Of a stretch of DNA of 32,000 nucleotides, positions 4,529-31,073 are shown piece after piece. Positions within the stretch are counted from its first letter, which is position 1. Each line of letters begins with the position of its first letter. The notes under the pieces are model-generated. The model was given only the letters and a program-made list of their open reading frames with translations, had not been told where the DNA came from and searched no databases. The stretch is from Aliivibrio fischeri ES114 (GTDB lineage Bacteria > Pseudomonadota > Gammaproteobacteria > Enterobacterales > Vibrionaceae). Position numbers and translations under genes: made by a program. The stretch lies in assembly GCF_000011805.1 (NCBI RefSeq), contig NC_006840.2. One strand, written 5' to 3'.

Positions 4529-4553
4529 TGTTGTACCTCATTTTTCAATCTAG

Positions 4554-4786: not shown

Positions 4787-4840
4787 TGAGCACAAAACAG
4801 ACAATAAACGCTCATTGCATTTTTAACTTAAGGTGTCCTC

Positions 4841-5260
4841 ATGAAAAAAAATACGCTGCTAAATTCTGAATTGTCATACGTTATCGCAACACTTGGTCAT
4901 ACTGATGAGATCACCATTTGTGATGCTGGCCTTCCTATTCCTGACGCTTCACAACGTATTGACCTTGCTCTAATTCAAGGCATACCAACCTTTATTGACA
5001 CCGTAAAAGCAACACTTACTGAAATGCAAATTGAAGGCGTAATTGTTGCCGAAGAATTTAAAACCGTTAGCCCACAAATGCACGATGAACTAATGACACT
5101 CATTGCAGCCGAAGAAGCGCAATGTAGTAAATCAATCACTGTTTCTTACATTCCTCATGAGGAATTCAAAATCCATACTCGTGAGAGTAAAGCGATCGTT
5201 CGAACTGGTGAATGTACCCCTTATGCCAATGTAATTTTTCAATCTGGCGTTGTTTTTTAA
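4841..5260 (+). CDS. rbsD: D-ribose pyranase
   Basis: 139 aa, MKKNTLLNSELSYVIATLGHTDEITICDAGLPIP is typical RbsD. First gene of the rbsDACBKR order. Confidence 0.92.
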   Translation: MKKNTLLNSELSYVIATLGHTDEITICDAGLPIPDASQRIDLALIQGIPTFIDTVKATLTEMQIEGVIVAEEFKTVSPQMHDELMTLIAAEEAQCSKSITVSYIPHEEFKIHTRESKAIVRTGECTPYANVIFQSGVVF

Positions 5261-5272
5261 GTAGGATACGTT

Positions 5273-6787
5273 ATGACTCAAGCTATCTTAGAATTAAACG
5301 GCATTGAGAAAGCCTTCCCCGGAGTGAAAGCTCTGGATGGTGCTTGTCTTAATGTCTATCCCGGCAAAGTCATGGCCCTGATGGGTGAAAATGGCGCGGG
5401 TAAATCAACCTTAATGAAGTCACTAACGGGCATCTACGCAATGGATGCTGGCGAAATCCGCTATGAAGGCAAAGCGGTTAACTTTAATGGTCCTAAACAC
5501 TCTCAAGAATCTGGTATTAGTATTATTCACCAAGAGTTGAACCTAATTCCTGAATTGACCATTGCAGAAAACATCTTCTTAGGCCGTGAAAAAACCAATG
5601 CGTTTGGCGGGATCAAATGGTCTGAAATGTACAAAGATGCTGATGCCCTACTCAAACGTTTGAATGTAAAACACCACTCTCGCCAACTATTAGGTGAACT
5701 GAGTTTAGGTGAACAACAAATGGTTGAAATTGCCAAAGCTCTATCATTCAAATCCAAAGTTATCATCATGGATGAACCGACAGATGCGTTAACGGATACC
5801 GAAACCGAATCGCTATTTAAAGTAATTAACGAACTACGTGATGAAGGTTGTGGCATTGTTTATATCTCGCACCGTCTAAAAGAGATCTTCGAGATCTGCG
5901 ATGACATTACAGTACTGCGTGATGGTAAATTCATCGGTGAACGTGTCGTTGCGGATATCGATGAAGACACACTAATTGAAATGATGGTAGGCCGTCGTCT
6001 TGATGAGCAATACCCTCGCATCGATGTTCAACATGGTGAAAAATCCCTAGAGCTATTCGATGTATCAGGTCCTGGTGTTCATAATGTTAGCTTTTCATTA
6101 GACCGTGGGGAAATCCTTGGGATCTCAGGTTTAATGGGCGCAGGCCGTACTGAATTGATGAAAATCATCTACGGTGCACTGCCAATGACTTGTGGTGCTA
6201 TCAAGCTAAACAACAAAATGATTAACCCTATTTCACCACGTGATGGATTAGCTAATGGCATCGCCTACATCTCAGAAGACCGTAAAGGTGATGGTCTGGT
6301 TCTTGGATTATCGGTTAAAGAGAACATGTCGATTTGTTCTTTAGATCAATTATCGAAAGGCATTCAATTAGATCATCATGCGGAAGTCACCGCGGTTGAA
6401 GACTTTATTCGTTTATTCAACATTAAGACCCCTACTCGTGATCAAATCATTGGTAATTTATCTGGTGGTAATCAACAAAAAGTAGCCATTGCTAAAGGAT
6501 TAATGACTCGTCCAAAAGTATTGATTTTAGATGAACCAACACGTGGCGTTGATGTTGGTGCGAAAAAAGAGATCTACCAATTAATTAACCAATTTAAAGC
6601 GGAAGGCATGAGCATCATTTTAGTCTCATCTGAAATGCCTGAAGTTCTAGGAATGAGTGACCGCATCCTAGTTATGCATGAAGGCCGTATTAGTGGCGAA
6701 TTCATGGCAAAAGATGCCGACCAAGAAAAATTATTGGCTTGTGCAGTAGGTAAAACTGTTGAGCAAAATGTAGAGGTAACAGCATGA
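5273..6787 (+). CDS. rbsA: Ribose ABC transporter ATP-binding protein (tandem ABC domains)
   Basis: Two Walker A motifs ([17 protein letters not shown]), two signature motifs ([15 protein letters not shown]) and two Walker B motifs (IIMDEPT, LILDEPT). Confidence 0.95.
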
Positions 6788-7770
6788 GCACCAAATCAAT
6801 GACTTCAACTGAAACACAACAAAAGAAAGGCGGCATTTTTTCTAAAGAGTGGCTGATTGAACAAAAATCATTAATCGCGCTATTGCTTTTGATTGTCGTG
6901 GTATCCTTTTTGAACGACAACTTTTTTACTGTCGACAACATCCTAAACATCCTACGTCAAACCTCAGTTAACGCGATTATTGCGGTAGGTATGACGTTAG
7001 TTATCTTAACGGCAGGTATCGACTTAAGCGTTGGCTCTGTATTAGCCCTTTGTGGTGCTTTTGCGGCAACCATGATTGGCCTTGAAATTCCGGTGATGAT
7101 TGCGGTTCCAACAGCACTACTTGCTGGTGCAGCTCTAGGTGCAATCAGCGGTATTATTATCGCAAAAGGTAAAGTTCAAGCATTCATTGCGACGCTAGTA
7201 ACCATGACGTTATTACGTGGTGTGACAATGGTTTACACAGAAGGTCGCCCTATCTCTACTGGTTTTACTGATGTTGCTGACAGCTTTGCATGGTTCGGTA
7301 CAGGTTACGCGCTTGGTATCCCAGTTCCTATCTGGCTAATGGTTATCGTGTTTGCATCTGTATGGTACTTACTAAACCACACACGTTTTGGTCGCTACGT
7401 TTATGCTCTAGGTGGCAATGAATCAGCAACTCGCCTATCTGGTATCAATGTGGATCGCGTTAAGATCGGTGTTTACGCTATCTGTGGTCTACTTGCTGCA
7501 CTGGCTGGTTTAATCGTAACGTCTCGTCTTTCTTCAGCTCAACCAACAGCAGGTATGGGCTACGAGCTAGACGCTATCGCAGCGGTTGTACTTGGTGGTA
7601 CAAGCCTTGCGGGTGGTAAAGGTCGCATCATGGGTACATTAATTGGTGCGCTTATCATCGGCTTCTTAAACAACGCTCTGAACTTATTAGATGTTTCTTC
7701 TTACTACCAAATGATTGCCAAAGCAGTGGTTATCCTACTGGCAGTATTAGTGGACAACAAAAACAAGTAA
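6784..7770 (+). CDS. rbsC: Ribose ABC transporter permease
   Basis: Polytopic membrane protein whose ATGA start overlaps the rbsA stop. Position in the rbs operon supports the call. Confidence 0.92.
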
Positions 7771-7901
7771 CACCTTATTATTTATACAATAACTTATTAC
7801 GAATACCCCTATAAATTCGTTTGCTGTTAACACAAAAATAGGCACAACCAGACGTACCATGTTTGACTTGTGCCGCCCTACACCCTTATAAGGAATATAG
7901 A

Positions 7902-8780
7902 ATGAAAAAGTTAGCAACCCTAATCTCTGCAGCCCTACTTTCTACCTCTTTCGCATCAACAGCGGCAGCTCAAGATACGATGGCAATGGTCGTTTCAACA
8001 TTGAATAACCCATTTTTTGTGACCATGAAAGAAGGCGCTGAAGCAAAAGCAAAAGACCTAGGCTACAAACTGATTGTTCTTGATTCTCAAAACGATCCAA
8101 GTAAAGAGCTTTCAAACATTGAAGATCTTACGGTTCGTGGCGTAAAAGCAATTCTTATCAACCCAACCGATTCAGATGCCGTTTCAAATGCGATTCGTAT
8201 GGCTAACCGCTCTGGTATTCCTGTATTAACGCTTGACCGTGGTGCGAGCCGTGGTGAAGTAGTTAGCCACATTGCATCAGATAACGTTGCTGGTGGTGAG
8301 ATGGCAGGTAAATTCATCATGGAAAAAGTGGGCGAAAAAGCACGCGTTATCCAACTTGAAGGCATCGCTGGTACCTCTGCTGCACGTGAACGTGGTGAAG
8401 GTTTCATGAAAACAGTAGATAATGGTGATCTGACTCTACTTGGTAGCCAACCTGCTGATTTTGACCGTACTAAAGGTCTTAACGTTATGGAAAACATGAT
8501 TGCAGCAAACCCTGATGTTCAAGCGGTATTTGCTCAAAATGATGAAATGGCGTTAGGTGCTCTACGTGCAGTTCAAGCATCAGGTAAAGACGTATTAATC
8601 GTCGGTTTTGATGGCACAGAAGATGGTATTGCAGCGGTTAATCGTGGTCTACTTGGCGCAACTATCGCACAGCAACCAGACCTAATTGGTGCACTTGGTG
8701 TAGAAACAGCGGCTAAAGTTCTTAAAGGTGAAAAGGTTGAGAAATTCATTCCTGTTGACCTAAAAGTTATTACAAAGTAA
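7902..8780 (+). CDS. rbsB: Periplasmic D-ribose-binding protein
   Basis: The ATG at 7902 is preceded by aggaat, and the signal peptide [23 protein letters not shown] follows. The track ORF begins 39 nt earlier at a TTG, which I reject. LacI/PBP type-1 fold sequence follows. Confidence 0.92.
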
Positions 8781-8803
8781 TCAGCTTATAAAGTAATAAA
8801 AGC

Positions 8804-8850
8804 GGAGCATTGATACGCTCACAACAACCAGTATCAGTGCTCCCTCTTTT
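8804..8850 (+). terminator. Intra-operon terminator/attenuator hairpin after rbsB
   Basis: 13-bp stem ggagcattgatac / gtatcagtgctcc (one G-U pair) followed by ctctttt. A 190-nt gap precedes rbsK. Confidence 0.6.
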
Positions 8851-8971
8851 CAAACATTAGAACCCTATAAAACCTATCGTTAAATGTACGAATTAATCAG
8901 TGAACTGATCGCCCATTTACCCATATGTTTTAAGACCACATTCCGGTCACAGATAAGAAACAAGGCACATT

Positions 8972-9889
8972 ATGAATAAATTAGTTGTTTTAGGTAGCGT
9001 AAACGCAGACCACGTTCTTCAAGTTGCTTCATTCCCTCGCCCTGGCGAGACGTTACACGGTCACAGCTATTCCGTTATTCCTGGTGGCAAAGGCGCAAAC
9101 CAAGCGGTTGCGGCGGCACGTTTAGGTGCTGATATCGCATTTATCGCAAGTGTGGGTGATGACAGTTTTGGTCACCAGATGATTGAAGCTTTTCAGTTTG
9201 ATGGCATTAATACCGAAGCGGTGATGATTGAAGAAAATACACCAACCGGCATTGCGATGATCCAAGTAGCAGCGACCGGCGAAAACAGCATTTGTATTTC
9301 AGCAGAAGCAAATGCGCGTTTAACGGCAGATCGTATCGCTCCTCATCACGGATTAATCGAAGCCGCTGATACCCTATTAATGCAACTTGAAACGCCTATT
9401 GAAACCATAGAAAAAGCAGCACAAATTGCCAAAGCAGCAGGAACTAAAGTGGTATTAAACCCAGCCCCTGCACATCAATTAAGTGATGACTTATTACAAC
9501 TTGTTGATATCATTACACCAAACGAAACAGAAGCCGAACTATTAACAGGCATTCAAGTAACGGATATGGCAAGCGCTCAACAAGCGGCTGATGCACTTCA
9601 TGCAAAAGGCATCGAAACCGTAATGATCACCCTTGGCAGCAAAGGGGTCTGGATAAGCCAAAATGGTTCTGGTCGCCAAGTTGAAGGTTTCAAAGTACAA
9701 GCGACAGATACAACAGGTGCAGGAGATACTTTCAACGGTGCATTCTTAACTGGATTACAATCAGGCCGTAAATTGGATGATGCTATCAAGTTTGCTCACG
9801 CTGCTGCCGCAATATCTGTAACTCGAATGGGTGCTCAAACGTCAATACCTTCAATCACTGAAGTCGAACGTTTTCTCTTAGAGCATTGA
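8972..9889 (+). CDS. rbsK: Ribokinase
   Basis: PfkB-family motifs GGKGANQAVAAARLG and DTTGAGDTFNGAF. Operon context supports the call. Confidence 0.93.
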   Translation: MNKLVVLGSVNADHVLQVASFPRPGETLHGHSYSVIPGGKGANQAVAAARLGADIAFIASVGDDSFGHQMIEAFQFDGINTEAVMIEENTPTGIAMIQVAATGENSICISAEANARLTADRIAPHHGLIEAADTLLMQLETPIETIEKAAQIAKAAGTKVVLNPAPAHQLSDDLLQLVDIITPNETEAELLTGIQVTDMASAQQAADALHAKGIETVMITLGSKGVWISQNGSGRQVEGFKVQATDTTGAGDTFNGAFLTGLQSGRKLDDAIKFAHAAAAISVTRMGAQTSIPSITEVERFLLEH

Positions 9890-9954
9890 TAATTAAATAT
9901 CGTTGCCTGTATTTGTATTTAATGTAGGCAACGATATAAACAAGGATTGAATTT

Positions 9955-10962
9955 ATGGCAACAATCAAAGATGTAGCCAAACATGCAAGTGTCTCAACCT
10001 CAACAGTAAGTCATGTTTTAAATAAAACTCGATTTGTTAGCGAAGATATTTCAGAACGTGTCATGGCCGCAGTAGCAGAACTAAACTATGCGCCTTCTGC
10101 CCTCGCCCGCAGTTTAAAAGTCAATCATACAAAAACCTTTGGCATGTTAGTGACAACCTCAACGAACCCATTTTTTGGTGAAGTGGTAAAAGGGGTAGAA
10201 CGTCGCTGCTATGAAAAAGGCTATAACCTCATCTTATGTAATACCGAAGGTGACGCAGAGCGTGTTCATTCAAGCTTAGATACCTTGCTACAAAAGCGTG
10301 TCGATGGCTTGTTACTGATGTGTACCGAAATCGAAAATCAAGTGCTTGAGCTCTTTTCTCGTTATCAACCGGTTCCTACCGTTGTAATGGATTGGGGATT
10401 GATTGATTTTCCAAGCGACAAAATTCAAGACAACTCGCACCACGGTGGCTATCTGGCAACAAAACACCTTATTGAACAAGGTCACACTGAAATTGGTTGT
10501 TTAACTGGTCCTCTCAATAAGTTGCAAGCACAACAACGTTTAAGTGGTTTTGTGCAAGCAATGGAAGAGTCAGGATTAGAAATCAATAAAAACTGGATTG
10601 CATCAGGCAATTTTGAATGTGAAGGCGGTGAAGCGGCTTTCAACGAAATTCATGCTAAAGGCAAACTACCAACGGCATTATTTGTTTGTAATGACATGAT
10701 GGCAATGGGAATGATCAATTGCGCAAGTAAAAAAGGCATTTCAGTTCCTAATGACATTTCAATTGTTGGTTATGATGACATTAAAATGGCTAAATACATC
10801 ACGCCATCACTTACTACCATTCATCAACCAAAACACCGATTAGGCCAACAAGCGGTCGATTCACTACTAGAAAAAATAGCAACAAAATCAGAAACGAATC
10901 GAGTTTTTCAGCTAGAGCCTACACTCATGGTTCGAGACAGCGTAAAGACGCTATCAAATTAG
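9955..10962 (+). CDS. rbsR: Ribose operon repressor, LacI family
   Basis: N-terminal HTH MATIKDVAKHASVSTSTVSHVLNKTRFVS followed by a periplasmic-binding-protein-like sugar-binding domain. Last gene of the rbs cluster. Confidence 0.9.
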   Translation: MATIKDVAKHASVSTSTVSHVLNKTRFVSEDISERVMAAVAELNYAPSALARSLKVNHTKTFGMLVTTSTNPFFGEVVKGVERRCYEKGYNLILCNTEGDAERVHSSLDTLLQKRVDGLLLMCTEIENQVLELFSRYQPVPTVVMDWGLIDFPSDKIQDNSHHGGYLATKHLIEQGHTEIGCLTGPLNKLQAQQRLSGFVQAMEESGLEINKNWIASGNFECEGGEAAFNEIHAKGKLPTALFVCNDMMAMGMINCASKKGISVPNDISIVGYDDIKMAKYITPSLTTIHQPKHRLGQQAVDSLLEKIATKSETNRVFQLEPTLMVRDSVKTLSN

Positions 10963-11051: not shown

Positions 11052-11909
11052 CTAATAATTATTTCTCACTGCAACGTATCGTGCAAATCTTGGGATTCCG
11101 TTATCCGTATAACCGTTATAACGATAAGTCACTGTAGAGCCTAATTTAGGTGGGTTTTCTCTTACTTCAATACTCAAACCGCTACCAACTTTAAATTCTT
11201 TTCCATTTGGCATACGTAAAATCATTGCGCCCACCATACCGCGAAACTTTCCTTTCCCATCGGTATAGCCGATCACAATGGCTTCATTGTCTTGATGTTT
11301 TTTCACTTTAATTAAATCGTCACTGCGTCCGGGTCTATAAACTTCACTGACCTTTCTTAGCATCACCCCTTCACCATTACGTGCAGAGATATCATCTAAT
11401 GCTTCTAATAGAGAGTCTTCATTACTGATAGGATAATGTTCAACCAATTTTAAGTGCGGGTGATCGAGCTTTTTAACTATGGTTGATAGCTCATAATATC
11501 GTTTGGGAAACATACCGGCAGAGCTAGGTAAATCGAATGCCATGAAGCGAATTTTTTTCCATAATTCATCATTAGGTTGACTGTCTAACACTGTTTTTGC
11601 AACTTGTTGAAATCCACCTCTTCCAGCCCATAACTCTCCATCAATCTTATGATCAGGTAATGGGCCAGTAAACCAATCTGGTGCATATATCGTGTGACCT
11701 GTTCGTGTTATTAACTTTTCTCCTGTCCATAATGCTCGAATACCATCTAACTTCTCACTTGCCCAATACCCTTCAATATCCATTCCTTTTTCATATTGAG
11801 TAGCAAGAACCACATCTATTGATGCAGTATTTGGTTCATCATGTGAATATGTGGGGAGTGGGGTTAACCCAAGCGCAACCAAGGCTGCAAGTAATTTTAT
11901 TTTCATCAT
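11052..11909 (-). CDS. Minimal ATP-dependent DNA ligase with signal peptide (Lig E class, predicted periplasmic)
   Basis: Signal peptide MMKIKLLAALVALGLTPLPTYS, then nucleotidyltransferase motif I EKLDGIRA (KxDG). It has adenylation and OB regions only (285 aa). Confidence 0.85.
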   Translation of the reverse strand: MMKIKLLAALVALGLTPLPTYSHDEPNTASIDVVLATQYEKGMDIEGYWASEKLDGIRALWTGEKLITRTGHTIYAPDWFTGPLPDHKIDGELWAGRGGFQQVAKTVLDSQPNDELWKKIRFMAFDLPSSAGMFPKRYYELSTIVKKLDHPHLKLVEHYPISNEDSLLEALDDISARNGEGVMLRKVSEVYRPGRSDDLIKVKKHQDNEAIVIGYTDGKGKFRGMVGAMILRMPNGKEFKVGSGLSIEVRENPPKLGSTVTYRYNGYTDNGIPRFARYVAVRNNY

Positions 11910-12235
11910 CCTGACCTATTATCATTATTCCTTTAATTCATGATTACATAAGCCCACAAACAACTAACGAAAAAATTGAACAAATATCACTCTATTTCGA
12001 TCCATCTCCAGAAACAATGAAATACGAGAACTATCACTTTCACTGTTTAAATATCCACTATTACCATAATTGTTATTTCATTGAGCTCTGCCAGATTTGT
12101 AGCTTATCAAAAAGATCAACATCTCACTCTTAATGCAAAGGTAATGTTTGTGACACATCAATATGAGATGTTTATTTATAGATAATTCTAATATCTATAA
12201 ATAATTCATATAACTCAACTATGGAAAGTAGTGAA

Positions 12236-14890
12236 ATGAAAACAACACAAATAAAAACCTCGCTTGCTATGGCGATTGGCTTGGCGCTATCTGGCAACGC
12301 TTCTGCTGACATCATTATCTCTCAATACGTGGAAGGCGGAAATTACAACAAATCATTGGAGATCAGTAACACCTCTGATACTCCTGTTTCCCTTTCAGGT
12401 TATGTACTTAAATCTAAATACAACGGTCTTAATGACTGGAAAAACGATTTAGATTTATCCTCTATCACTCTTGATGCCAAAAGTGTTTATGTCATCTCTA
12501 ATGGCCGAGCATCAGACCCAATCAAAGCTGTTACCGACAGCATTGAAAGCATTGTAAATCACAACGGTGATGAGACTTACATGCTATTTAAAGATGGTGT
12601 AGAGCATGATCGCATAGGCATTGATGGCGATGTTGATTGGGGTAAAGATAAGAGTTTTGTTCGTACTGATTTAACCCCAAGCACAACGTTTGATGCCAAC
12701 ATGTGGATTGAAAAACCAAAAGACAACATTGACGGACTAGGGGTATATCAAGAAGGCGTCACACCACCTCCGGCATTTGCGTGTCAAACAGAATCAGGTG
12801 CAACCCCCGTATTTACAGAAATAAACCAAATTCAAGGAACCGGAGACAAATCCCCTCTTATCTCTAGCGGCTTTATTTCAGATGATGAGTATTTTGTTCA
12901 AGGTGTTGTTACCGCTCGTGGCGAAAGCTTACTAAAAGGATTTTACTTACAGGGTCTCAACGATGATTTTGATCCTAACAGCTCAGAAGGCATATTTGTT
13001 AGCACAGGAAGTGCGCCATCGTTAGAAATTCAACCCGGCGCATTAGTGTGTGTAAAAGCCAAAGTTCAAGAATATTACGGTCAAACGCAATTAAAACCTG
13101 ATACCAATAACTTCTTAGTTCAAGGCCATCAAGCTCCTGTATCCGTTACCGAGCTAACCATTAATGAAAACGAAACACTTGCGCAAGCCCTTGAGCGTCA
13201 TGAAGGGATGCAAGTCAAACTCACTTCACACTCAGATTTACGTATCACACGTAATTTCAGCTTTGACTACGCAAGTAAACGCAACAACATGGTACTTTCT
13301 CATGGTGAACCACTATTCAAACCTACACAGCTCTTTGCTGCAGAAAGTCCAGAAGCCATTCAACTTGCTGAAGAGAATGCAAAACGCCAAATCACCATAG
13401 AGTCTGATAATAAAGCACCTAATGGAGAAGTACCTTACTTCCCTGATTTTGCAACCGATTCCAATCAAGATGGCAGCGCAGATTCATACTTACGCCTTGG
13501 TGCTCGAATCGAAGGTTTAGAAGGTGTTATCGCCTACTCTTACGGCCAATACCGCCTTGTTACCACCAATACCATTTCACAAGAAAATATCATCACTCAA
13601 GCTTTCGATGAAGATGGTGATACCCTATTTAATGTAGAGCGTACTGACGAACCAAGTATTGACGATGCAGATCTCACCATTACTAGTTTTAACGTATTAA
13701 ACTACTTCACATCCGTTGCTGCTGGTGGCGATGCGAACCCAACAGGTCAAAACCGTGGTGCAACAAGTGCTGATGACTTTGCGATTCAACAAGCAAAAAT
13801 CCTCTCGGCATTAGTGGCTATTGATGCTGACATTATTGGTTTAATGGAAGTTGAAAATAACGGCTTTGGCGAGAACAGTGCCATTAACGATCTAACCACG
13901 GCATTAAATGCTCAATTTGAAGACGAAGAAGATCACTACAAATACGTAGAGATCAAAAACAAAGACAAATACCAAGGAGAATACCTAGGCTCTGATGCCA
14001 TTATGGTTGCCCTTCTTTACCGCCCTAGTGAAGTAAAACTCAAAGGCAAAGCACGCGTTATCAAAACACCAGAACAACACATTGCAGAAAATACTATTAC
14101 TCGTGACAACAACGGGACCATTGAATTTAACCCAGCTTATGACAAATACCAACGTCATAGCCTAGTTCAAAAATTCATGATTAAAGACGCTAAAGAACCA
14201 TTAACCGTTGTTGTAAACCATCTAAAATCAAAAGGCTCTGAGTGTATTGAGCAATGGCAAAACTTTGAAGAAGACAAAGACCCATCAGATCTACAAGGTA
14301 ACTGTAACCGCTTTAGAGTATCAGCAGCAAAAGCCATTGGTGATGAACTAGAAAGCGTAAAAGGCGATGTGTTAATTCTTGGCGATATGAATGCTTATGG
14401 CATGGAAGATCCACTATTAACCCTTACGGATTACAGCCAAGAGAAATATAACCGTGACATCTTTACCGCTTCTTACACCACACTAGGCACAGATAAAGAT
14501 GGTAAACCCCTGCCTTATGAAACAACAGGCAGCCAGGTCACTCAAGGTTATGGTTACATTAACTTAAATACCTTACTGCATGGAACGGATACTTTCTCTT
14601 ACACCTACTCAGGTGAATTAGGAAATCTTGACCACGCTTTAGCGAATAAGTCACTGGCAAAACGTGTTGCTGAAATTGAAGATTGGCACATTAACGCAGC
14701 TGAAAGTAACTTATTTGAATACAGCCCGAAATACACGGGTGATATGGTGAAATACAATGACATGTATTCAGCATCTGATCATGACCCAATTGTGATCACA
14801 CTTGATTATGAGAAAGGGGCATCATTTAACTTCTTTGCATTAGCTTCTTTATTAGGCTTTGGTTTCTTGCGCAGAAAACTACGTAAATAA
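12236..14890 (+). CDS. xds: Extracellular nuclease, Xds-like: lamin-tail domain + OB-like region + endonuclease/exonuclease/phosphatase (EEP) domain + GlyGly-CTERM-like tail
   Basis: The ORF opens at 12221. The Met at 12236 (ggaaag upstream) gives signal peptide MKTTQIKTSLAMAIGLALSGNASA. The LTD-like segment is IIISQYVEGGNYNKSLEISNTSDTPVSLSGYVL. EEP motifs are ITSFNVLNYF, GLMEVEN and SASDHDPIV. The C-terminus is GASFNFFALASLLGFGFLRRKLRK. Confidence 0.85.
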   Translation: MKTTQIKTSLAMAIGLALSGNASADIIISQYVEGGNYNKSLEISNTSDTPVSLSGYVLKSKYNGLNDWKNDLDLSSITLDAKSVYVISNGRASDPIKAVTDSIESIVNHNGDETYMLFKDGVEHDRIGIDGDVDWGKDKSFVRTDLTPSTTFDANMWIEKPKDNIDGLGVYQEGVTPPPAFACQTESGATPVFTEINQIQGTGDKSPLISSGFISDDEYFVQGVVTARGESLLKGFYLQGLNDDFDPNSSEGIFVSTGSAPSLEIQPGALVCVKAKVQEYYGQTQLKPDTNNFLVQGHQAPVSVTELTINENETLAQALERHEGMQVKLTSHSDLRITRNFSFDYASKRNNMVLSHGEPLFKPTQLFAAESPEAIQLAEENAKRQITIESDNKAPNGEVPYFPDFATDSNQDGSADSYLRLGARIEGLEGVIAYSYGQYRLVTTNTISQENIITQAFDEDGDTLFNVERTDEPSIDDADLTITSFNVLNYFTSVAAGGDANPTGQNRGATSADDFAIQQAKILSALVAIDADIIGLMEVENNGFGENSAINDLTTALNAQFEDEEDHYKYVEIKNKDKYQGEYLGSDAIMVALLYRPSEVKLKGKARVIKTPEQHIAENTITRDNNGTIEFNPAYDKYQRHSLVQKFMIKDAKEPLTVVVNHLKSKGSECIEQWQNFEEDKDPSDLQGNCNRFRVSAAKAIGDELESVKGDVLILGDMNAYGMEDPLLTLTDYSQEKYNRDIFTASYTTLGTDKDGKPLPYETTGSQVTQGYGYINLNTLLHGTDTFSYTYSGELGNLDHALANKSLAKRVAEIEDWHINAAESNLFEYSPKYTGDMVKYNDMYSASDHDPIVITLDYEKGASFNFFALASLLGFGFLRRKLRK

Positions 14891-16567: not shown

Positions 16568-17314
16568 TTACATACCTATGCTTTCACTAATGCTATCAAT
16601 TTCTTTGATATCCATCTGTAGCAATTGTAATTCATCATTATATTGAGCGATGAGTTTTTTTGCTGCTTCTTGACGTTGGCAAACATCTGACTTCACATCC
16701 CAACTCTTACCTTCAAGGTACACTTCACACTCTTTCGCAAGACGTTTTTCATTTGATGTTGTTACTTCAAGTTTAACTTCAAGTGCACTTGCTTCTTCTT
16801 TCAATTGAAGTTGACGTTGGAACAACTGCTTTGCACGCGTCAGCATCGTCACTTGTAAATCAACTTGGTTAGTTAATTTATCAATTTGCTTATTTTGCTC
16901 TTCAACTTGCATTTCTAGTGAGGCTTTTTGAGACTTCAATGCACCCACTTCTTTTGTTAATGTCGCATGTTTTTTTGATTCTTCAACAATCGCTTGTGCT
17001 TTTTCTTCATCAAGCGTTTGTTTTTGTGCTTCTAATGCTTGCTGTTTTTCTTTTTCAACCAGCACATCAACCTCAGCACTCTTCTCTTTTGCTTGAGTTA
17101 ACTGTAATTGATATTGCTTAGTTTGAGTTTCTAATTGAGTGTAGGCTTCTGTCCATTTATTTTCTGAAATACTAGAGCCAATTAAACCACCGGCAACCGC
17201 ACCGATAATCAAGGTTACCCCTGCTACCCAATGGCTCGCTTTTGATTTCTCTTCAATAATAATGACATCTTCATCGTGCTCATCAGATGTTCTTGTTTGA
17301 TTTTCTACACTCAC
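16568..17314 (-). CDS. Membrane-anchored coiled-coil protein, unknown function
   Basis: Acidic N-terminus and one TM segment (WVAGVTLIIGAVAGGLIGSSI), then about 190 aa of Q/E/K-rich heptad-like sequence. Confidence 0.6.
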   Translation of the reverse strand: MSVENQTRTSDEHDEDVIIIEEKSKASHWVAGVTLIIGAVAGGLIGSSISENKWTEAYTQLETQTKQYQLQLTQAKEKSAEVDVLVEKEKQQALEAQKQTLDEEKAQAIVEESKKHATLTKEVGALKSQKASLEMQVEEQNKQIDKLTNQVDLQVTMLTRAKQLFQRQLQLKEEASALEVKLEVTTSNEKRLAKECEVYLEGKSWDVKSDVCQRQEAAKKLIAQYNDELQLLQMDIKEIDSISESIGM

Positions 17315-17732: not shown

Positions 17733-17950
17733 ATCCGATGAAGACTGCAGGAGAGTGGCAAAAACCGTCAAGGTTACGCCCGCCGAAGAAGTAAATCTTT
17801 CAGGTGCCGAGTTCATTTTTTAAGTGAATAAGGTGAGGACTGTAGTTGGAGGAATCTCTGGAGAGAGCCGTTAAATCGGCCGCCGAAGGAGCAAGCCCTT
17901 ATCTGAAAAATGATAAAGGTGAAACTCTCAGGCAAAAGGACAGAGGAGAA
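17733..17950 (+). promoter_or_regulatory. Tandem glycine riboswitch (two aptamers)
   Basis: Aptamer 1: gaagactgcaGGAGAGtggc...cgCCGAAGAAGTAAatctttCAGGtgccga...AGGACtgtag. Aptamer 2: ctctGGAGAGagccgttaaatcggcCGCCGAAGGAGCAAgccc...aaaCTCTCAGGCAAAAGGACagag. This nearly matches the V. cholerae glycine riboswitch as I recall it, and it lies upstream of a sodium:alanine symporter gene as in V. cholerae. Confidence 0.92.
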
Positions 17951-18050
17951 AGTGATCCGATTAATCTCGGCTCTATACTATTTGTCGATCTTTTGACTTT
18001 GGTACACCACTCTCTCTTCTCCTTTCTATATGTTTTATTAAGGGGAAACC

Positions 18051-19433
18051 ATGAACACTTTTCACAACACGCTTGTTACTATAGATAACTTCATTTGGGG
18101 TCCACCTCTTTTGATTTTATTGGTTGGTACGGGTATCTACTTTACGTTTCGTTTACGTATTTTCCAACTTCGCCACTTACCAACTGCGCTTAAAATGGTT
18201 TTTTCACGAGAAGAAAACCAAAGTACGGGCAAGGGTGATGTTTCAAGCTTTGCGGCGTTATGTACTGCCCTATCAGCAACCATTGGTACAGGTAACATCG
18301 TAGGTGTAGCAACAGCCATCAAACTGGGTGGTCCTGGTGCTCTTTTCTGGATGTGGCTTGCTGCTGTATTTGGAATGGCAACAAAATATGCCGAATGTTT
18401 ACTTGCGGTTAAATACCGTAAAACAGACAGCAAAGGCGAAATGGTTGGCGGCCCAATGTACTACCTTGAATATGGCATGGGTAATAAATGGCTAGCAAAA
18501 CTGTTTGCCCTATTCGCTTTAGGTGTTGCTTGCTTTGGTATTGGTACATTCCCACAAATTAACGCGATTGTTGACTCAGCACAGCTAACAATGAATGCAC
18601 CAGCATGGTTAACAGGCGGTATCCTTACGGTGCTTGTTGCGGTTGTAACACTTGGTGGGATTCAATCTATCGCTAAAGTTGCTGAAAAAGTCGTTCCAAC
18701 AATGGCGGTAATTTATGTTGTATCGTGTGCTTCTGTTTTAATAATGCAAGCCGAAGCTTTACCAGCTGCATTTCAATTAGTAATTACGTCTGCGTTTACT
18801 GGTACTGCTGCAACTGGTGGTTTTGTTGGTGCATCAATCATGCTAGCTATTCAATCAGGTGTGGCTCGTGGTGTATTCTCAAATGAATCAGGTCTTGGTA
18901 GCGCCCCAATGGCAGCGGCAGCCGCTAAAACTGACTCTTGTGTAAAACAAGGCCTTGTATCGATGACAGGTACCTTCTTTGATACCGTGATCATTTGTAC
19001 CATGACAGGATTAACTTTAGTGGTTACTGGTGTATGGCAAGGTGATGCGGCAGGCGCACTAATGACAACCCAAGCATTTGCTATTGGTTTAGGCTCTGAA
19101 CAAATTGGTCCTTATCTTGTATCTATCGGTTTAATGTTCTTCGCCTTCACGACAATTTTAGGTTGGAACTACTACGGTGAACGTTGTGTGACTTACTTAT
19201 TTGGTCGCAAAGGTGTTTTACCATACAAAATAATCTTTATTAGCCTAGTGGCATCTGGTGCTTACATGCATTTAGACACTATTTGGGTTATTGCTGATAT
19301 TGTTAACGGTTTAATGGCTATTCCAAACCTAATTGGTCTAATCGCTCTTCGTCATATTATTATTGAAGAAACTCACCTGTTCTTCAGTAAACAGAAAGAG
19401 ACTGAAAACGAACAAGTTTTTAATAGAATATAG
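18051..19433 (+). CDS. agcS: Sodium:alanine (glycine/alanine) symporter family protein
   Basis: 460 aa polytopic protein with AGCS-family sequence (SFAALCTALSATIGTGNIVGVATAI, GGPGALFWMWL, GLGSAPMAAAAAKT). It is controlled by the glycine riboswitch. Confidence 0.9.
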   Translation: MNTFHNTLVTIDNFIWGPPLLILLVGTGIYFTFRLRIFQLRHLPTALKMVFSREENQSTGKGDVSSFAALCTALSATIGTGNIVGVATAIKLGGPGALFWMWLAAVFGMATKYAECLLAVKYRKTDSKGEMVGGPMYYLEYGMGNKWLAKLFALFALGVACFGIGTFPQINAIVDSAQLTMNAPAWLTGGILTVLVAVVTLGGIQSIAKVAEKVVPTMAVIYVVSCASVLIMQAEALPAAFQLVITSAFTGTAATGGFVGASIMLAIQSGVARGVFSNESGLGSAPMAAAAAKTDSCVKQGLVSMTGTFFDTVIICTMTGLTLVVTGVWQGDAAGALMTTQAFAIGLGSEQIGPYLVSIGLMFFAFTTILGWNYYGERCVTYLFGRKGVLPYKIIFISLVASGAYMHLDTIWVIADIVNGLMAIPNLIGLIALRHIIIEETHLFFSKQKETENEQVFNRI

Positions 19434-26771: not shown

Positions 26772-27024
26772 CGCATTATCTTATGAAAATTAGGAATAAT
26801 TAACTCAGTTTATCTATGTTTTATGATGCTTGCAAAAAAGTTGATGGGGAATGATTTGTTTATCGAACTTTGAAAAACATTCAGAGACAACCTTAAACGG
26901 CTTTCATTTTGTAATTCGTGTTTGAGCAACACTTTATCCCCTATAAGGGATAAGAACTGCTTTATCCTCGATCGGGGATATTACAGATATGATGAGGTAT
27001 GGTATTACGGAAAAATATCCCGTA

Positions 27025-27062
27025 TCAAAAAATGGATGTGGTTATTTAAAACCACATCCATT
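27025..27062 (-). terminator. Rho-independent terminator of the three-gene operon
   Basis: Perfect 13-bp stem aatggatgtggtt / aaccacatccatt with a 6-nt loop. On the minus strand it is followed by tttttt. It lies about 130 nt downstream of the stop at 27191. Confidence 0.8.
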
Positions 27063-27190
27063 CTTATATTAATTAACTTATTTTTAATAAAAATATTTGA
27101 TTATAAATAATGTTTGAACAATATTTGCTAACCTCAACAAAAATAAATCAGTATAAATCTCATTGACTCAACTCACATTACTACCCAGAA

Positions 27191-29206
27191 TCATTCTTCA
27201 ACAGGGTGAATCAAGCCACGGGTTCGCCATCTGTTATTATTAACTAGCGAATCAAATGGCTCATCATTGGATAATGCCAAATTATCTGCATGATCTGTTA
27301 CTATAATTTGCGGGCTAAAGCCGTAATTTCTTTTTAATTCATTACAGTAAATTGAGAGTTGACTAAATAAGTTTTCAACAGCTTTTATGTCTTCATCAAT
27401 AGGTCTATCTTTATTTGTTCTTTGATTTTCTTCCTTACTTTTTTGCTCTTCGAAACTATTAGAGTTATCACGAGAGAAATCTGGGAAATATACTTGTGTC
27501 GGTTGATCCAGAAACAATATCGAAGGAATAGAACATTTATCACCCAATTCAACAAAATACTTATGTAATGCCAAAAATAAAGTTATGTGACAATATAACC
27601 AATTTGCACCACTTCCCATTGATCGTAAGTAGATTTTTTCATTCTCGGTCGTTAAATGATAAAGATCAAATGTTTCAAATGAAAAATGAAGGTTGATAGG
27701 TTTATAGCTCGCTTCAAACGCAAAATGCCTACCAATTTCAATCATATATTCGTTTACCTTAGCTGATGCACGTTCTAAACCTTTTTGCACATCATATTTT
27801 TTCAGAGCTTCATTAATTTTCTTGAGCTGTCCACCAATCTTTTTGATCTCCTTTTCAAGCTCAACATCGTCGGCCATATTAAGAGTGTCAATAATTGCGA
27901 ATAACTTTGCCTTTTGTATTATGATGCTTTCATACAGAGTCTTTTGTTCCGCTATTTGTTTATTTGTTTTCTCGATATTTATTATTTGTTGATTTAGTTC
28001 TGTTAAATCCTTACTGACAACATCAATATGACGCTGTACATCGACTAATGAAGATTCAAACTTTGCCTTCATTGGACGAGCTTGAGCAAGATTACCCGAT
28101 ATCTTCGTGATAGCCTGTTGTAGTCTTTCTGCGCTTTGTCGTAAACTGTCTTTTTTAGTATGACAAAATGGACAAACCGAAGTCGAAATATGTGCATGCT
28201 TAGGTGAACTAAATTGTTTTACATTATCGACAAAAAGTTCTTCTTCTTGAATGTGCTTATTAATTGACGATACTTGACGCTGCAACTTCCGCAATTCAGC
28301 ATTTTTTTGATTTCTTGTAAGAGTTAACTGATTGTATAGTTGTGCAGACGCATCCGAATTATAATTAATTTTCTCAGGAACTATAATTCCATCAAGCCGC
28401 TCTTTCGCATCTTGTGGATGATGAAGTATTTTATCTAATGATAATGGTTCATATTTAAACCCCATCAAAGCATACATCTGTCTCAATACCGGACTGACTT
28501 TTTGTTTATAATTTTCTGATGTACGCTTATTTGTTTCTTTTTGGCGCTCTAAACGCCTAACTTCTGACGCAATTCGTTCTTTTTCTTGTGATAAATGAAA
28601 GAATTTTTGATCAACAAGACCTAAAAAAATCTTTGTGTGTTCAATAGCCTGATCTCGCTTTTCTTTCTCATCAAATCGATAAAATAACGCATGTTTGTTA
28701 GCAATAAGATTTTGATGTTGAAGAATAAACGATGAAAAACTACGCACCGATGGAGTTGGAGATTTTTGGTTAAATTTCCGATTAAATCGAGCAACTAAAG
28801 ATTCATCGACATCATCGATATCTAAGAAAAACGTTCTTAAATGCTTTTTAAACTCACTCAGTGGTCGAAAATAACTAGTATTAAAATAGTCTTGGTCAAT
28901 ATCTTTAGAATCAAATGCTTCAACACGACGAAAAAAACCTTTCGACGCAATAACAGGATCACGAGCAATTATCATATCCTGCCCGTTAACTGCAAGTGCA
29001 ACATAATAAATAGCAGCTTTAGTTGTAATAATCCCTTTGGGGATTGTATTTTCGCCACTACCAAAACAATAATCAAAAATTTCAATTAAAGCACTTTTAC
29101 CTGTAGAGGATTTACCTGTAACAACGTTAAGCCCAACCTTAAAATTAACAGGGTGTTTTTTACCTTGTTTATCAATAACCCCAATTTCATGAATAAGTGT
29201 ATTCAT
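27191..29206 (-). CDS. ABC-type ATPase with long coiled-coil insertion (DUF3732-like; candidate ABC-3C system ATPase)
   Basis: Walker A GKSSTGKS (res 31-38), signature-like SMGSGAN (529-535), Walker B ILFLDQP (563-569) and TDHAD (637-641). About 290 aa of helical heptad-rich sequence separates the two half-domains and has CPFC at 345-348. The N-terminus (VGLNVVTGKSSTGKSALIEIFDYCFGS) and LDQPTQVYFP match my memory of DUF3732. Confidence 0.8.
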   Translation of the reverse strand: MNTLIHEIGVIDKQGKKHPVNFKVGLNVVTGKSSTGKSALIEIFDYCFGSGENTIPKGIITTKAAIYYVALAVNGQDMIIARDPVIASKGFFRRVEAFDSKDIDQDYFNTSYFRPLSEFKKHLRTFFLDIDDVDESLVARFNRKFNQKSPTPSVRSFSSFILQHQNLIANKHALFYRFDEKEKRDQAIEHTKIFLGLVDQKFFHLSQEKERIASEVRRLERQKETNKRTSENYKQKVSPVLRQMYALMGFKYEPLSLDKILHHPQDAKERLDGIIVPEKINYNSDASAQLYNQLTLTRNQKNAELRKLQRQVSSINKHIQEEELFVDNVKQFSSPKHAHISTSVCPFCHTKKDSLRQSAERLQQAITKISGNLAQARPMKAKFESSLVDVQRHIDVVSKDLTELNQQIINIEKTNKQIAEQKTLYESIIIQKAKLFAIIDTLNMADDVELEKEIKKIGGQLKKINEALKKYDVQKGLERASAKVNEYMIEIGRHFAFEASYKPINLHFSFETFDLYHLTTENEKIYLRSMGSGANWLYCHITLFLALHKYFVELGDKCSIPSILFLDQPTQVYFPDFSRDNSNSFEEQKSKEENQRTNKDRPIDEDIKAVENLFSQLSIYCNELKRNYGFSPQIIVTDHADNLALSNDEPFDSLVNNNRWRTRGLIHPVEE

Positions 29207-29667
29207 CGTGGTTTTACTCCTAAAAATGCATAAACCTCAACCACTGAGTGCCCACAAAATAATCGCCCTAACTTTTCTGCACTTTTTTGATAGATAAAAG
29301 CTACATCAGAACATTCACTTTTACGAATAGATAAATCTTCTTCATCTACCAATAACCAATCATTGACTAAGCAATATTGAATACACTGTTCAGTTAAGGT
29401 TTGAAATCCATCAATTCGCTCCTGCAAATCGTAGAATTTGGAACGGTCTTCGAAAATTGACCAAATAGAACTTCGTCTTTTATCTCCAAATACAGCTCCC
29501 GAAATTTTTTTCCGAAAATCAGGATGACTACACAATGGGATGACCAAAGGAGCAAACAAAAGATTATTTTCAGACTCGTCAATTGCAGTATAAAAAGAAG
29601 CTAAGTAAGAACTATATTCAAATGGATTGTATTTTAATTCGTACAAAGCATCGACAATACTACTCAT
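29203..29667 (-). CDS. Small protein, candidate ABC-3C 'middle component' adaptor
   Basis: 154 aa with no catalytic motif. ATGA overlaps with both neighbours imply translational coupling. Size and central position match the middle component of three-component ABC systems. Confidence 0.6.
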   Translation of the reverse strand: MSSIVDALYELKYNPFEYSSYLASFYTAIDESENNLLFAPLVIPLCSHPDFRKKISGAVFGDKRRSSIWSIFEDRSKFYDLQERIDGFQTLTEQCIQYCLVNDWLLVDEEDLSIRKSECSDVAFIYQKSAEKLGRLFCGHSVVEVYAFLGVKPR

Positions 29668-30788
29668 ATCTCAACCTTCCATTTCAAATTTCGAGATTCA
29701 TCATCCATTGCGTCATGTAGCAAACCATTTTTGTATTCAATTGGAGGAATATCATTACCCATATTCAAAGGCTGCTCTCCCATAATTTTGTTATATAGTA
29801 ACTTTGAGTTTTTAATAACATCAATTGCTTCAAGTTGTGCACTTGAATAAGCAATCTTATATTTTTTAACCAATTGGTTTTGATAAACATTCGTTTTATC
29901 TCTATACAATGGATATTCGTCTAACTCTTCAAAAAGTGAATTTTGCAATTCAAGCCAATTACCTACAGCATCTGCTATCATTTCATCGTGCTCTATTTCA
30001 TAAATTTTTTGGACAAAAGGCTTATCTTGATGTAATCCGATTTCAAGTTCAGACGCTTCATAGCCTGAAAAAACTGGAAAAGTGAACTCTTTTTTACAAA
30101 AAAGAGCTGTTAATTCTTCACACTTTGTAATGAATGCATGTTGGCTGACAACCCACGACTTCTGCGTTGCCTGTGCATAAACAAAACCAACTAAGTTATT
30201 AAGGTAACTACCTAAATTATTCTTCGGAACACCAATAAGCTTAGAAAAAATCATTTTTTCTAATACTTGAACGTTATCAGCTTGTGTAAACAAAGTAACT
30301 TTACCAAGTAAATTTTCTCGTAAAGTTTTATCCGAACTCATAACTGCTCGCTGTAATTTAATAATTTGAGACGATTTGCCCCTATCAAGCAAATCCTCTT
30401 TACGTTCTGAAAAAATAGCCTCAAGTACTCCCATACGTTGATCGACTGTTTGTGTATTCCAGTCTTTTAGGCGAGTTTTTACTCCAAAAGCTTGAGTTGT
30501 ATGAAGCACTAAAAGGCCATATTGTGTATGGTCAAATTCTGGTTCCAACCAATTCTTGAGCGTTTTCCACAGGTTTTCATGATGATCAGTTAGCGGCGCG
30601 GCGTAATTTTTCACTTCAATTTGACAAGATGTAGAAGCATTTGATGAAAGTAGGCTCACATCACCATCCTTTTCAAACCAGACGGATTGACCTTCTTCAA
30701 GAGAAAAACACTTATCCAAACCAATCAGCACTTGATAATGAAAGGCTAATGCCGTTGTTAAGGCTGCATTTTTAGTTTGTCCTTTCAT
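29664..30788 (-). CDS. Effector: N-terminal Cap4/DUF4297-like PD-(D/E)xK nuclease domain + helical C-terminal domain
   Basis: N-terminus TTALAFHYQVLIGL (GFxYQ-like), then FEKDGDVSL...CQIEVKN, giving D(41/43)...E58-x-K60 of the restriction-endonuclease fold. The remaining 250 aa or so are helical with no motif I recognise. Confidence 0.65.
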   Translation of the reverse strand: MKGQTKNAALTTALAFHYQVLIGLDKCFSLEEGQSVWFEKDGDVSLLSSNASTSCQIEVKNYAAPLTDHHENLWKTLKNWLEPEFDHTQYGLLVLHTTQAFGVKTRLKDWNTQTVDQRMGVLEAIFSERKEDLLDRGKSSQIIKLQRAVMSSDKTLRENLLGKVTLFTQADNVQVLEKMIFSKLIGVPKNNLGSYLNNLVGFVYAQATQKSWVVSQHAFITKCEELTALFCKKEFTFPVFSGYEASELEIGLHQDKPFVQKIYEIEHDEMIADAVGNWLELQNSLFEELDEYPLYRDKTNVYQNQLVKKYKIAYSSAQLEAIDVIKNSKLLYNKIMGEQPLNMGNDIPPIEYKNGLLHDAMDDESRNLKWKVEI

Positions 30789-31073
30789 GCCTTTCTAGTC
30801 CTCATATTCATTTATAAAATTGTATTGAATTTTTAATTACAGGCAAACAACATTGTGCAACCATAAATGCCTACACCCTACGGTCTCCAAACTAAGCCAT
30901 CTTACCGCACGACCGCATATTCCTTCTACAAATAACAGAGCAAATCCACCACCATTTTTCAAAACTGCTTATAAATTCACAAAAGTTAACTTGGCTCAAA
31001 TACAGTCCGTTATTTATTACGCTAGACTACAGCTAATTTTCGAGTCACTTCACACTTTATCTGGCCGTACATA

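Follow-up and report, generated by a model that had tools for sequence, protein, structure and literature searches.

A type II "short" Lamassu operon of Aliivibrio fischeri ES114, apparently functional, in a defence slot that varies between strains

Operon layout and signals

The locus in Aliivibrio fischeri ES114, a squid symbiont, comprises three minus-strand open reading frames of 374, 154 and 671 aa within the 32,000-nucleotide stretch of contig NC_006840.2 analysed here ("the window"). They lie where a preliminary description of this DNA had placed them and are, in order, lmuA (29664..30788; VF_1463 by position), lmuC (29203..29667; VF_1462) and lmuB (27191..29206; VF_1461). The first encodes the effector, a Cap4-type PD-(D/E)xK nuclease joined to a Lamassu C-terminal domain, the second the MC3 middle component, and the third the sensor, an SMC/Rad50-like ABC ATPase of the short type. 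Both gene junctions are indeed ATGA on the minus strand, and 54 of 56 homologous operons share these −4/−4 overlaps. The strong terminator described after lmuB is likewise real (27023..27062, minus strand): a perfect stem of 13–16 bp at 27031–27062 runs into TTTTTT on that strand, with a free energy of −22.6 kcal/mol (z = −6.7; 0 of 200 shuffles equally stable). Upstream of lmuA, a candidate sigma-70 promoter, TTGCCT-16-TACAAT (30819..30846, minus strand), is proposed from its consensus match only (9/12), and a Shine-Dalgarno-like GAAAGG stands directly 5′ of the lmuA ATG.

Housekeeping genes directly adjoin the operon in the window; the conserved flanks reported earlier are a LysR regulator on one side and a UvrD-family helicase on the other. 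A DNA ligase and a helicase are present in the wider window. The UvrD-type helicase was considered as a further part of the system, e.g., of a Gabija type, and rejected: it gives generic GajB/UvrD matches only, lacks a GajA partner and does not recur beside homologues of the operon.

The three components and their family

LmuB matches the PADLOC LmuB model over its full length (PDLC03859, 2.6e-116), Pfam PF12532 (DUF3732, now named LmuB_C; 3.7e-59) and, over residues 13–655, two solved proteins: 9hqu_A of the Salmonella enterica Tennessee LmuACB, its best sequence match (1.9e-35), and 9ny5_D of the Vibrio cholerae system (3.5e-34). The ABC motifs are split as previously proposed, and the region of ~285 aa between them matches SMC coiled-coil models. 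On the minus strand we located the Walker A motif (residues 31–38, including K37; 29093–29116), the Q-loop (28709–28720), the signature motif (residues 529–535; 27602–27622), the Walker B motif ILFLDQ (residues 563–568; 27503–27520) and the H-loop (27287–27295). A CPFC zinc hook (residues 345–348; 28163–28174, minus strand) had been overlooked in the preliminary description. Across 56 orthologues, Walker A, hook, signature, Walker B and H-loop are 98–100% conserved, CPFC itself at 100%. In the short Lamassu clade (Haudiquet et al., 2025), LmuB has about 600 aa, a Walker B of the form hhhhD[Q/S/T/E] and 0–2 CxxC hooks (PMC12663957); with 671 aa, ILFLDQ and one CPFC hook, the ES114 protein belongs to this clade.

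The 154-aa product, for which no motifs had been recognised, belongs to the Pfam MC3 family (PF20131, 1.1e-42). It is also called LmuC by PADLOC (3.3e-20), carries the NCBI name "three component ABC system middle component" and is encoded between lmuA and lmuB. A single-sequence search with LmuC found no solved LmuC.

PADLOC recognises LmuA over its full length (LmuA PDLC03848, 2.1e-40), while single-sequence Pfam and NCBIfam searches with LmuA alone returned nothing, the Pfam Cap4_nuclease and CTD7 models included. As single-sequence and shallow-profile searches of the PDB gave marginal matches only (E = 0.27 and 0.043), we used a profile of 121 relatives from an exhaustive representative search. 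This profile matched V. cholerae LmuA (DdmA; 6e-15) and Salmonella LmuA (2e-14), aligning over residues 67–374 of DdmA, i.e., its middle and C-terminal regions. The AlphaFold2 (AF2) monomer model has a pLDDT of 94.8; another, from a shallow alignment of 36 sequences (73–80% identity), reached 43 and was discarded. In Foldseek searches the top matches, both full length, were LmuA chains of tetramer structures (9hr5_C, 1.7e-15; 9nxx_D, 5.9e-14), followed by the CBASS effector Cap4 (6vm5, 7yib and 6vm6; 3.7e-4 to 1e-2), with further fold matches to HerA-DUF4297 (DUF4297 chain 9c1m_G), Avs3 and Hachiman nucleases. Some homologues are named "adenylate cyclase," which no profile or fold result backs and which we treated as mis-annotation.

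The restriction-endonuclease-fold motif set claimed earlier for LmuA lies in its N-terminal nuclease domain, which spans residues 1 to ~150 (30339..30788, minus strand), with the catalytic E39/D43 at 30660–30674 and E58-V-K60 at 30609–30617. E39, G42, D43, E58 and K60 are invariant across the 121 diverse representatives, where mean column identity is 29%. Because the Pfam Cap4_nuclease model matches few relatives (5/121) and those weakly (best 1.3e-3), assignment of this domain to the Cap4/DUF4297 PD-(D/E)xK fold with an intact D…E-x-K site draws mainly on the predicted structure. The helical middle region and C-terminal domain (residues about 151–374; 29667..30338, minus strand) are supported by the DdmA alignment and by the Pfam CTD7 model, which matches 36 of the 121 family members. 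PADLOC, profile, CTD7-matching relatives and fold thus agree on an effector domain joined to an ABC-3C C-terminal domain.

The preliminary description had proposed an ABC-3C conflict system, with a nuclease effector, a middle component and a DUF3732 ATPase in that order, and on this point it was right. Pfam identifies MC3 and DUF3732/LmuB_C, and PADLOC calls all three proteins Lamassu; the A-C-B order holds in 58 of the 58 homologous loci that extend far enough; and defence genes occur in the genomic contexts, both as alternative occupants of the slot described below and as type I R-M systems, which adjoin homologues in 5 of 22 loci. Profile similarity, co-localisation and context were each examined for evidence against the ABC-3C reading, and none went against it. 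For the ABC-3C name, the Lamassu papers cite the Aravind group's 2020 ABC ATPase classification in NAR, reportedly a purely computational description. In kind, the ES114 system does not differ from ABC-3C: it has an effector with the C-terminal domain, MC3 and a DUF3732 ABC ATPase.

The claim that such a system is experimentally uncharacterised fails, since ABC-3C is the computational name for type II Lamassu/DdmABC (10.1101/2025.06.23.660979; 10.1101/2025.03.14.643221), the experimentally characterised name (10.1101/2025.06.23.660979). Lamassu defence was shown in 2018–2022 (10.1101/2022.05.11.491447; DdmABC papers such as PMC11707656) and cryo-EM mechanisms were published in 2025. The operon is therefore of an ordinary, already-understood kind that PADLOC already recognises. 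Taken together, we consider it very probably a complete type II "short" Lamassu (lmuA-lmuC-lmuB) of the Cap4/CTD7/MC3 class, apparently functional and horizontally acquired into a variable defence slot.

Alternatively, the operon might look intact yet be silent or inactive, a remnant carried along in ES114 after its horizontal acquisition and providing no defence. Some regional decay is evident, as an in-frame stop interrupts the adjacent UvrD-type helicase in the ES114 lineage; the promoter matches the consensus at just 9/12 positions; and literature searches on the locus tags VF_1461–1463 found nothing, nor did a search on Lamassu in fischeri yield anything relevant. Yet all three reading frames are full length with every catalytic residue conserved, the translational-coupling overlaps and the strong terminator are kept, and the exact operon proteins recur across dozens of sequencing runs of the ES114 lineage. 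We regard a silent remnant as unlikely.

A strain-variable defence slot

The whole cassette forms an ES114-specific insert of 3.9 kb (26982..30859) that includes both its candidate promoter and its terminator. In blastn comparisons with other A. fischeri strains, homology breaks off at 26981 towards LysR and restarts at 30860 towards the helicase. The block had been described as much more AT-rich than its flanks; it is AT-rich, though only moderately so (33.5% GC vs. 39.0% in the remainder of the window). Still, none of 116 windows of equal size elsewhere has so low a GC content (their minimum is 35.5%), which points to horizontal acquisition. We sought terminal repeats and transposon- or integron-type ends at the insert borders and found none, and an integron-cassette or transposon origin is rejected on that ground; mobility genes are likewise absent from the insert.

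The position of the insert adjoins the LysR gene, beside PLP enzyme and RidA genes. When strains were compared via the LysR variant that other strains carry, the same slot was found to contain long Lamassu, PD-Lambda-1 or HipBA, with BREX neighbouring it. The LmuB cluster has 6 members as against 79–108 for the flanking genes; in a search for empty sites, all contigs with the exact ES114 LysR or RidA proteins carried the operon. As several large proteins without a family match occupy the slot in other strains, it is a useful place to seek new defence genes in A. fischeri.

These patterns bear directly on two further readings. The first is that the operon is a housekeeping Rad50/SbcC-like DNA-repair module and not an immune system, as might be suggested by an SMC/Rad50-like LmuB with a zinc hook and weak matches to RecN and SMC models, by the helicase and DNA ligase of the wider window, and by the proposed derivation of Lamassu from SbcCD (PMC12663957). 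However, a strain-variable, low-GC insert with so small an LmuB cluster, in a slot that holds other defence systems in other strains, lacks the core distribution of Rad50-Mre11/SbcCD; the operon also has no Mre11/SbcD phosphoesterase partner, and its effector combines a Cap4-type nuclease with the C-terminal domain of Lamassu. A repair role is, in our judgement, extremely improbable.

The second sees the cassette primarily as a selfish and addictive element, whose toxic nuclease the partner proteins restrain; it would spread horizontally, and defence would be a side effect. Its compact, self-contained 3.9-kb form, the 73–80% identity of LmuA across several orders and classes of Proteobacteria, and the toxicity of plasmid-expressed Lamassu operons (10.1101/2025.03.14.643221) would all suit such an element. 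Set against this are the insert's lack of mobility genes and terminal repeats, its residence in a defence hotspot, which is typical of immune cargo, and the protection that related systems give against phage and plasmid, dependent on all three components (10.1101/2022.05.11.491447). We judge a chiefly selfish element to be very improbable and retain the reading of a Lamassu immune system.

Proposed mode of action and relation to known systems

Trigger, stoichiometry and target, earlier described as unknown, have been published for Lamassu: the complex is A1B2C1; it responds to dsDNA ends, phage replication origins and palindromes; and an LmuA tetramer cuts dsDNA non-specifically (PMC12663957). 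The earlier suggestion of an ATPase that licenses the nuclease via the adaptor came close, but in the published mechanism LmuB2-LmuC sequesters monomeric LmuA, which is released and then tetramerises (PMC12663957; 10.1101/2025.03.14.643221); in the solved homologues the middle and C-terminal part of LmuA is held by LmuB2-LmuC and is used for tetramerisation.

Taking the mechanism by homology from the solved V. cholerae and Salmonella systems, two ES114 LmuB subunits (Rad50-like heads, kinked coiled coils and the CPFC hook) and one LmuC would grip one LmuA by its C-terminal domain, and this grip would hold the nuclease in an inactive, monomeric state. When a phage or plasmid invades, its dsDNA ends or the DNA structures associated with its replication would be sensed by the LmuB heads together with LmuC, and slow ATP turnover at the deviant Walker B (D-Q) head would help LmuA release. 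Freed LmuA would tetramerise via its C-terminal domain, bringing two Cap4 domains together as an active site (D43/E58/K60). This site would cut dsDNA with little sequence specificity, and the infected cell would die in an abortive infection.

Among known systems, V. cholerae DdmABC (Lamassu Vc-Cap4; 9nxx, 9ny1, 9ny5, 9uxh, 9uxl), in which DdmA, DdmB and DdmC correspond to LmuA, LmuC and LmuB, shares with the ES114 operon its gene order, the Cap4-type N-terminal and CTD7-class C-terminal domains, MC3, a short DUF3732/LmuB_C ATPase with an hhhhDQ Walker B, and a location in a Vibrionaceae chromosome on DNA gained by horizontal transfer. The sequences are nevertheless very diverged (LmuA 14–17% identical in structural alignment; LmuB E = 3.5e-34), and V. 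cholerae LmuB has no zinc hook (PMC12663957) whereas that of ES114 has one. The Salmonella LmuACB (9hqu, 9hqx, 9hr5), which provides the best structural match to LmuA, has a single hook as well: the ES114 CPFC aligns with its CPMC, and the K37 region of LmuB with a Walker A carrying K40. It is also of the Cap4-CTD7/MC3 class, with its catalytic K68 in the equivalent (Q/E)-x-K motif. However, LmuA is only 16–19% identical, the host differs, as presumably does the phage range, and the ES114 LmuA relatives form their own tight clade of 375-aa LmuA proteins.

More distant comparisons separate parts of the system from their relatives. With Cap4, LmuA shares the N-terminal nuclease fold and the D…E-x-K active site, but cyclic oligonucleotide/SAVED activation is Cap4's own; LmuA carries the Lamassu C-terminal domain, and its solved homologues are activated by release from LmuB2-LmuC. 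With Rad50-Mre11/SbcCD, the operon shares the ABC head, coiled coil, CxxC hook and DNA-end recognition, but its coiled coil is much shorter, a Q replaces the Walker B E, and its effector is a sequestered toxic nuclease and not a positioned repair nuclease.

As LmuA is only 14–19% identical to solved LmuA proteins and has no Pfam match of its own, and as solved LmuC proteins escaped the LmuC search, the trigger and the phage and plasmid range could differ from those of DdmABC. For the squid–vibrio field, the intact Lamassu that ES114 carries in its strain-variable slot may influence the phage sensitivity of this strain and the behaviour of plasmid tools in it. We take it that ES114 maintains plasmids stably, so strong anti-plasmid activity is not guaranteed. 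Presumably p15A/ColE1-type plasmids are poorly maintained in V. fischeri, and the ES114 Lamassu might contribute to this. A "Vibrio fischeri" LmuACB, not necessarily the ES114 copy, was included in an E. coli toxicity and phage screen (10.1101/2025.03.14.643221).

Finally, residues ~150–374 of LmuA occur in two versions among relatives, about 20–40% identical to one another, both joined to the same nuclease head (81–88% identical) and both beside closely related LmuC and LmuB (70–87%). Aliivibrio finisterrensis, with the closest LmuB (87%), yet carries the other LmuA version. A real module exchange, in which one LmuB-LmuC sensor accepts two very different sequestration/oligomerisation domains, is a tentative and rather improbable reading of this pattern as opposed to ordinary divergence. 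If it were true, the exchange could be a way of evading anti-Lamassu inhibitors of phages directed at the C-terminal domain, and the clade would serve as a natural experiment on the holding and release of LmuA.

Layout and family of the operon

Three minus-strand genes make up the operon, namely lmuA (30788..29664; VF_1463 by position; 374 aa), lmuC (29667..29203; VF_1462; 154 aa) and lmuB (29206..27191; VF_1461 on chromosome I; 671 aa), with coordinates and lengths exactly as the preliminary description had them. The 4-nt stop/start overlaps reported there also hold, with ATGA on the minus strand at both gene junctions, and this -4/-4 arrangement is common to 54 of 56 homologous operons, which, at the sequence level, argues for translational coupling of lmuA, lmuC and lmuB rather than chance. 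A candidate sigma-70 promoter (TTGCCT-16-TACAAT, 30846-30819, minus strand) is a consensus match only. The strong terminator claimed past the operon is borne out: downstream of lmuB, a perfect stem (27031-27062, minus strand) followed by TTTTTT folds at -22.6 kcal/mol (z = -6.7; 0/200 shuffles equally stable). Of the conserved flanks that had been noted, one is a LysR regulator and the other a UvrD-family helicase that begins within the window. The block had further been called much more AT-rich than these flanks; its GC content is indeed lower than in any of 116 segments of equal size from the remaining sequence (minimum 35.5%), but the bias is only moderate (33.5 vs 39.0% GC).

The operon belongs to a known, well-characterised defence family, which was correctly identified as ABC-3C, and its membership of the Lamassu family is close to certain. 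Specifically, PADLOC models match all three proteins (LmuA PDLC03848 over the full 374 aa, 2.1e-40; LmuC, 3.3e-20; LmuB PDLC03859, 2.6e-116). The 154-aa protein, previously described as without motifs, matches Pfam MC3 (“ABC-3C middle component 3,” 1.1e-42), and Pfam DUF3732—already renamed LmuB_C in precomputed annotations—covers the C-terminal head half of the 671-aa protein (3.7e-59). By exact-sequence match, NCBI names these two “three component ABC system middle component” and “DUF3732 domain-containing protein,” respectively. What did not stand is the view of such systems as experimentally uncharacterised: ABC-3C is equated with type II Lamassu/DdmABC in two preprints (10.1101/2025.06.23.660979; 10.1101/2025.03.14.643221), and defence, stoichiometry, trigger and target have been published. 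Li et al. screened 13 LmuACB candidates for toxicity and phage protection, one of them a “Vibrio fischeri” operon that may or may not be VF_1461-1463 (10.1101/2025.03.14.643221).

LmuB residues 13-655 align with cryo-EM LmuB chains from Salmonella (9hqu_A, 1.9e-35) and V. cholerae (9ny5_D and 9uxl_A, 3.5e-34). The protein carries Walker A (GKSSTGKS, residues 31-38), Q-loop (QHQN, 163-166), signature (SMGSGAN, 529-535), Walker B (ILFLDQ, 563-568) and H-loop (DHA, 638-640) motifs, together with a zinc hook (CPFC, 345-348) that had been overlooked and that aligns with the CPMC hook of the Salmonella Lamassu; all are 98-100% conserved (n = 56 orthologues). The “short” Lamassu clade is marked, in published work, by a D-Q Walker B, a comparable length and one hook (PMC12663957), and ES114 LmuB (671 aa) matches each of them.

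LmuA as nuclease, and the published mechanism

Assignment of LmuA depended on alignment depth. As a single sequence it had no Pfam or NCBIfam match and a marginal one to a solved LmuA (E = 0.27), and its close relatives—375-aa proteins, 73-80% identical, from Photobacterium, Halomonas, Aeromonas, Xenorhabdus, Proteus, V. cholerae, Alteromonas and others—have no Pfam domain in any case. A profile of 36 relatives barely bettered the PDB match (0.043), and the AF2 model based on these 36 failed (pLDDT 43). When 1.84 billion representatives were searched exhaustively, 400 relatives emerged, and in an alignment of 121 full-length relatives (mean column identity 29%) just seven residues are invariant: E39, G42, D43, E58, K60, N79 and T97. 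By sequence, this is a D...E-x-K nuclease signature, and the mutants proposed earlier (D43A/E58A/K60A, and K37A in Walker A of LmuB) aim at the correct residues. Pfam CTD7 is matched by 36 of the 121 family members and Cap4_nuclease, weakly, by 5. Against the PDB, the deep profile recovers V. cholerae LmuA/DdmA (6e-15) and Salmonella LmuA (2e-14), in matches that span from just past the catalytic lysine to the C-terminus. The AF2 model from the deep alignment (pLDDT 94.8, pTM 0.81) has as its best Foldseek matches, over the full length, 9hr5_C from the Salmonella LmuA tetramer (1.7e-15) and 9nxx_D, the V. cholerae LmuA (5.9e-14); after these rank HerA-DUF4297, Cap4 (6vm5, 7yib, 6vm6), the nuclease head of Avs3, and HamA of Hachiman. 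On these profile, AF2 and Foldseek results, LmuA is predicted to be a divergent nuclease of the Cap4 type that ends in a Lamassu C-terminal domain, in the same NTD-Cap4–CTD7/MC3 class in which Li et al. place DdmABC and the Salmonella system (10.1101/2025.03.14.643221). Some LmuA homologues (proteins P0005, P0007, P0066, P0079, P0097 and P0098) go under “adenylate cyclase” in the NCBI or UniRef records; this name has no profile or fold support and is probably a propagated mis-annotation.

For the V. cholerae and Salmonella systems, the published accounts describe an A1B2C1 complex that holds one LmuA by its C-terminal domain, near LmuC and the hook-proximal part of the coiled coils from both LmuB protomers. 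In vitro this complex binds to the ends of dsDNA, and in vivo to the replication origin of phage lambda; palindromic DNA is another trigger. Freed LmuA forms a tetramer in which two paired Cap4 domains make one active site, and it cleaves with little sequence specificity, leaving 1-nt 3' overhangs and causing cell death. Defence depends on the lysines of Walker A and of the nuclease and on engagement of the heads; in Salmonella it further depends on the zinc hook (PMC12663957; 10.1101/2025.03.14.643221). The window's three proteins have, in conserved form, every class of residue that this scheme requires. By analogy with the solved homologues, the ES114 operon would follow the same course—LmuA held, a DNA trigger, release, tetramer assembly and DNA cutting—and we consider it probable that the mechanism transfers.

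Two versions of LmuA

Among relatives, about a dozen loci (including L041-L048, L052 and L060) have a mosaic LmuA: its first ~110-150 residues are 81-88% identical to the window protein and residues ~150-374 (window 29667-30338, minus strand) only 20-40%, while LmuC and LmuB stay 70-87% identical. The closest LmuB of all, that of A. finisterrensis (L045, 87%), is accompanied by the other LmuA version. These sequence patterns suggest module exchange within one Lamassu clade. The two versions deserve a recombination test because residues ~150-374 bind LmuB2-LmuC and build the tetramer in solved homologues. As Lamassu has already been described as modular, with co-evolving parts (PMC12663957), the mosaic is a detail of a known theme and only mildly unusual.

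Insert, defence slot and neighbouring genes

Compared with other A. fischeri strains, homology ends at 26981 next to LysR and restarts at 30860 towards the helicase, which leaves 26982-30859 as an ES114-specific insert made up of precisely the promoter, three genes and terminator; within it we found no terminal repeats or mobility gene. LmuB has 6 members in its 90%-identity cluster vs 79-108 for flanking genes. Gene order A-C-B is kept in all 58 loci that extend far enough (of 62 related loci). Elsewhere in A. fischeri, the same LysR-side slot holds HipBA with giant family-less proteins (L079-L081), PD-Lambda-1 (L082, 9e-178) or, in L083, a distinct Lamassu of the long type with effectors of hydrolase and protease type (LmuB 9e-175). 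BREX lies one slot over in L078, flanked by the genes for the PLP enzyme and M32 peptidase. Among 22 homologous loci in other genera, Type I R-M directly abuts lmuA in five; AAA_21/AAA_15-type ATPases or integrases occur beside others, and housekeeping genes beside the remainder, in agreement with the defence score of about 25% published for short Lamassus (PMC12663957). The operon's genomic context is thus the usual picture of mobile defence cargo.

In the five R-M loci, each from a different genus (L004, L010, L011, L015 and L016; about 3200-9979 each), Lamassu begins 22 nt past co-oriented HsdR/HsdM/HsdS and a ~370-410-aa ORF, which suggests a recurrent composite island. In other A. fischeri strains, these defence slots also encode large proteins without Pfam or PADLOC match (1420 aa; 825 + 100 aa; 407 aa) and a 1558-aa protein with a weak PDC-M54A match only (L079:3676-7938, L081:3676-7938, L080:3142-7818, L079:12636-15412, L082:8505-9731). 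Most adjoin HipBA, and they are candidate uncharacterised defence genes.

The UvrD-family helicase, from window position 31074, is one 957-aa gene in another A. fischeri strain (UvrD-helicase, UvrD_C, Zn_ribbon_Top1; compare L063:1320-4232 and L082:3368-6241). The ES114-lineage copy can be aligned to it without a frame change (99% identity) but has an in-frame stop past codon 465 (about 32469-32471, just beyond the window), and is called as 465 + 467 aa. Because several strains have no such helicase in the region, the gene may be variable cargo and not part of the core.

The remainder of the window is housekeeping (ribose operon, DEAD-box helicase, DNA ligase, transporters, M32 carboxypeptidase, PLP enzyme, RidA). 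The small ATP-dependent DNA ligase (285 aa, 11052-11909, minus strand) is divergent from an adjoining 889-aa protein (12221-14890, plus strand) with lamin-tail and endonuclease/exonuclease/phosphatase domains, which from its domain content looks like an extracellular nuclease. Two conserved minus-strand ORFs have no Pfam match (202 aa at 2946-3554; 248 aa at 16568-17314), the latter syntenic in other A. fischeri strains. Upstream of a sodium:alanine symporter gene (18051-19433) is a glycine riboswitch aptamer (Rfam RF00504, 70.6 bits; 17848-17953, plus strand).
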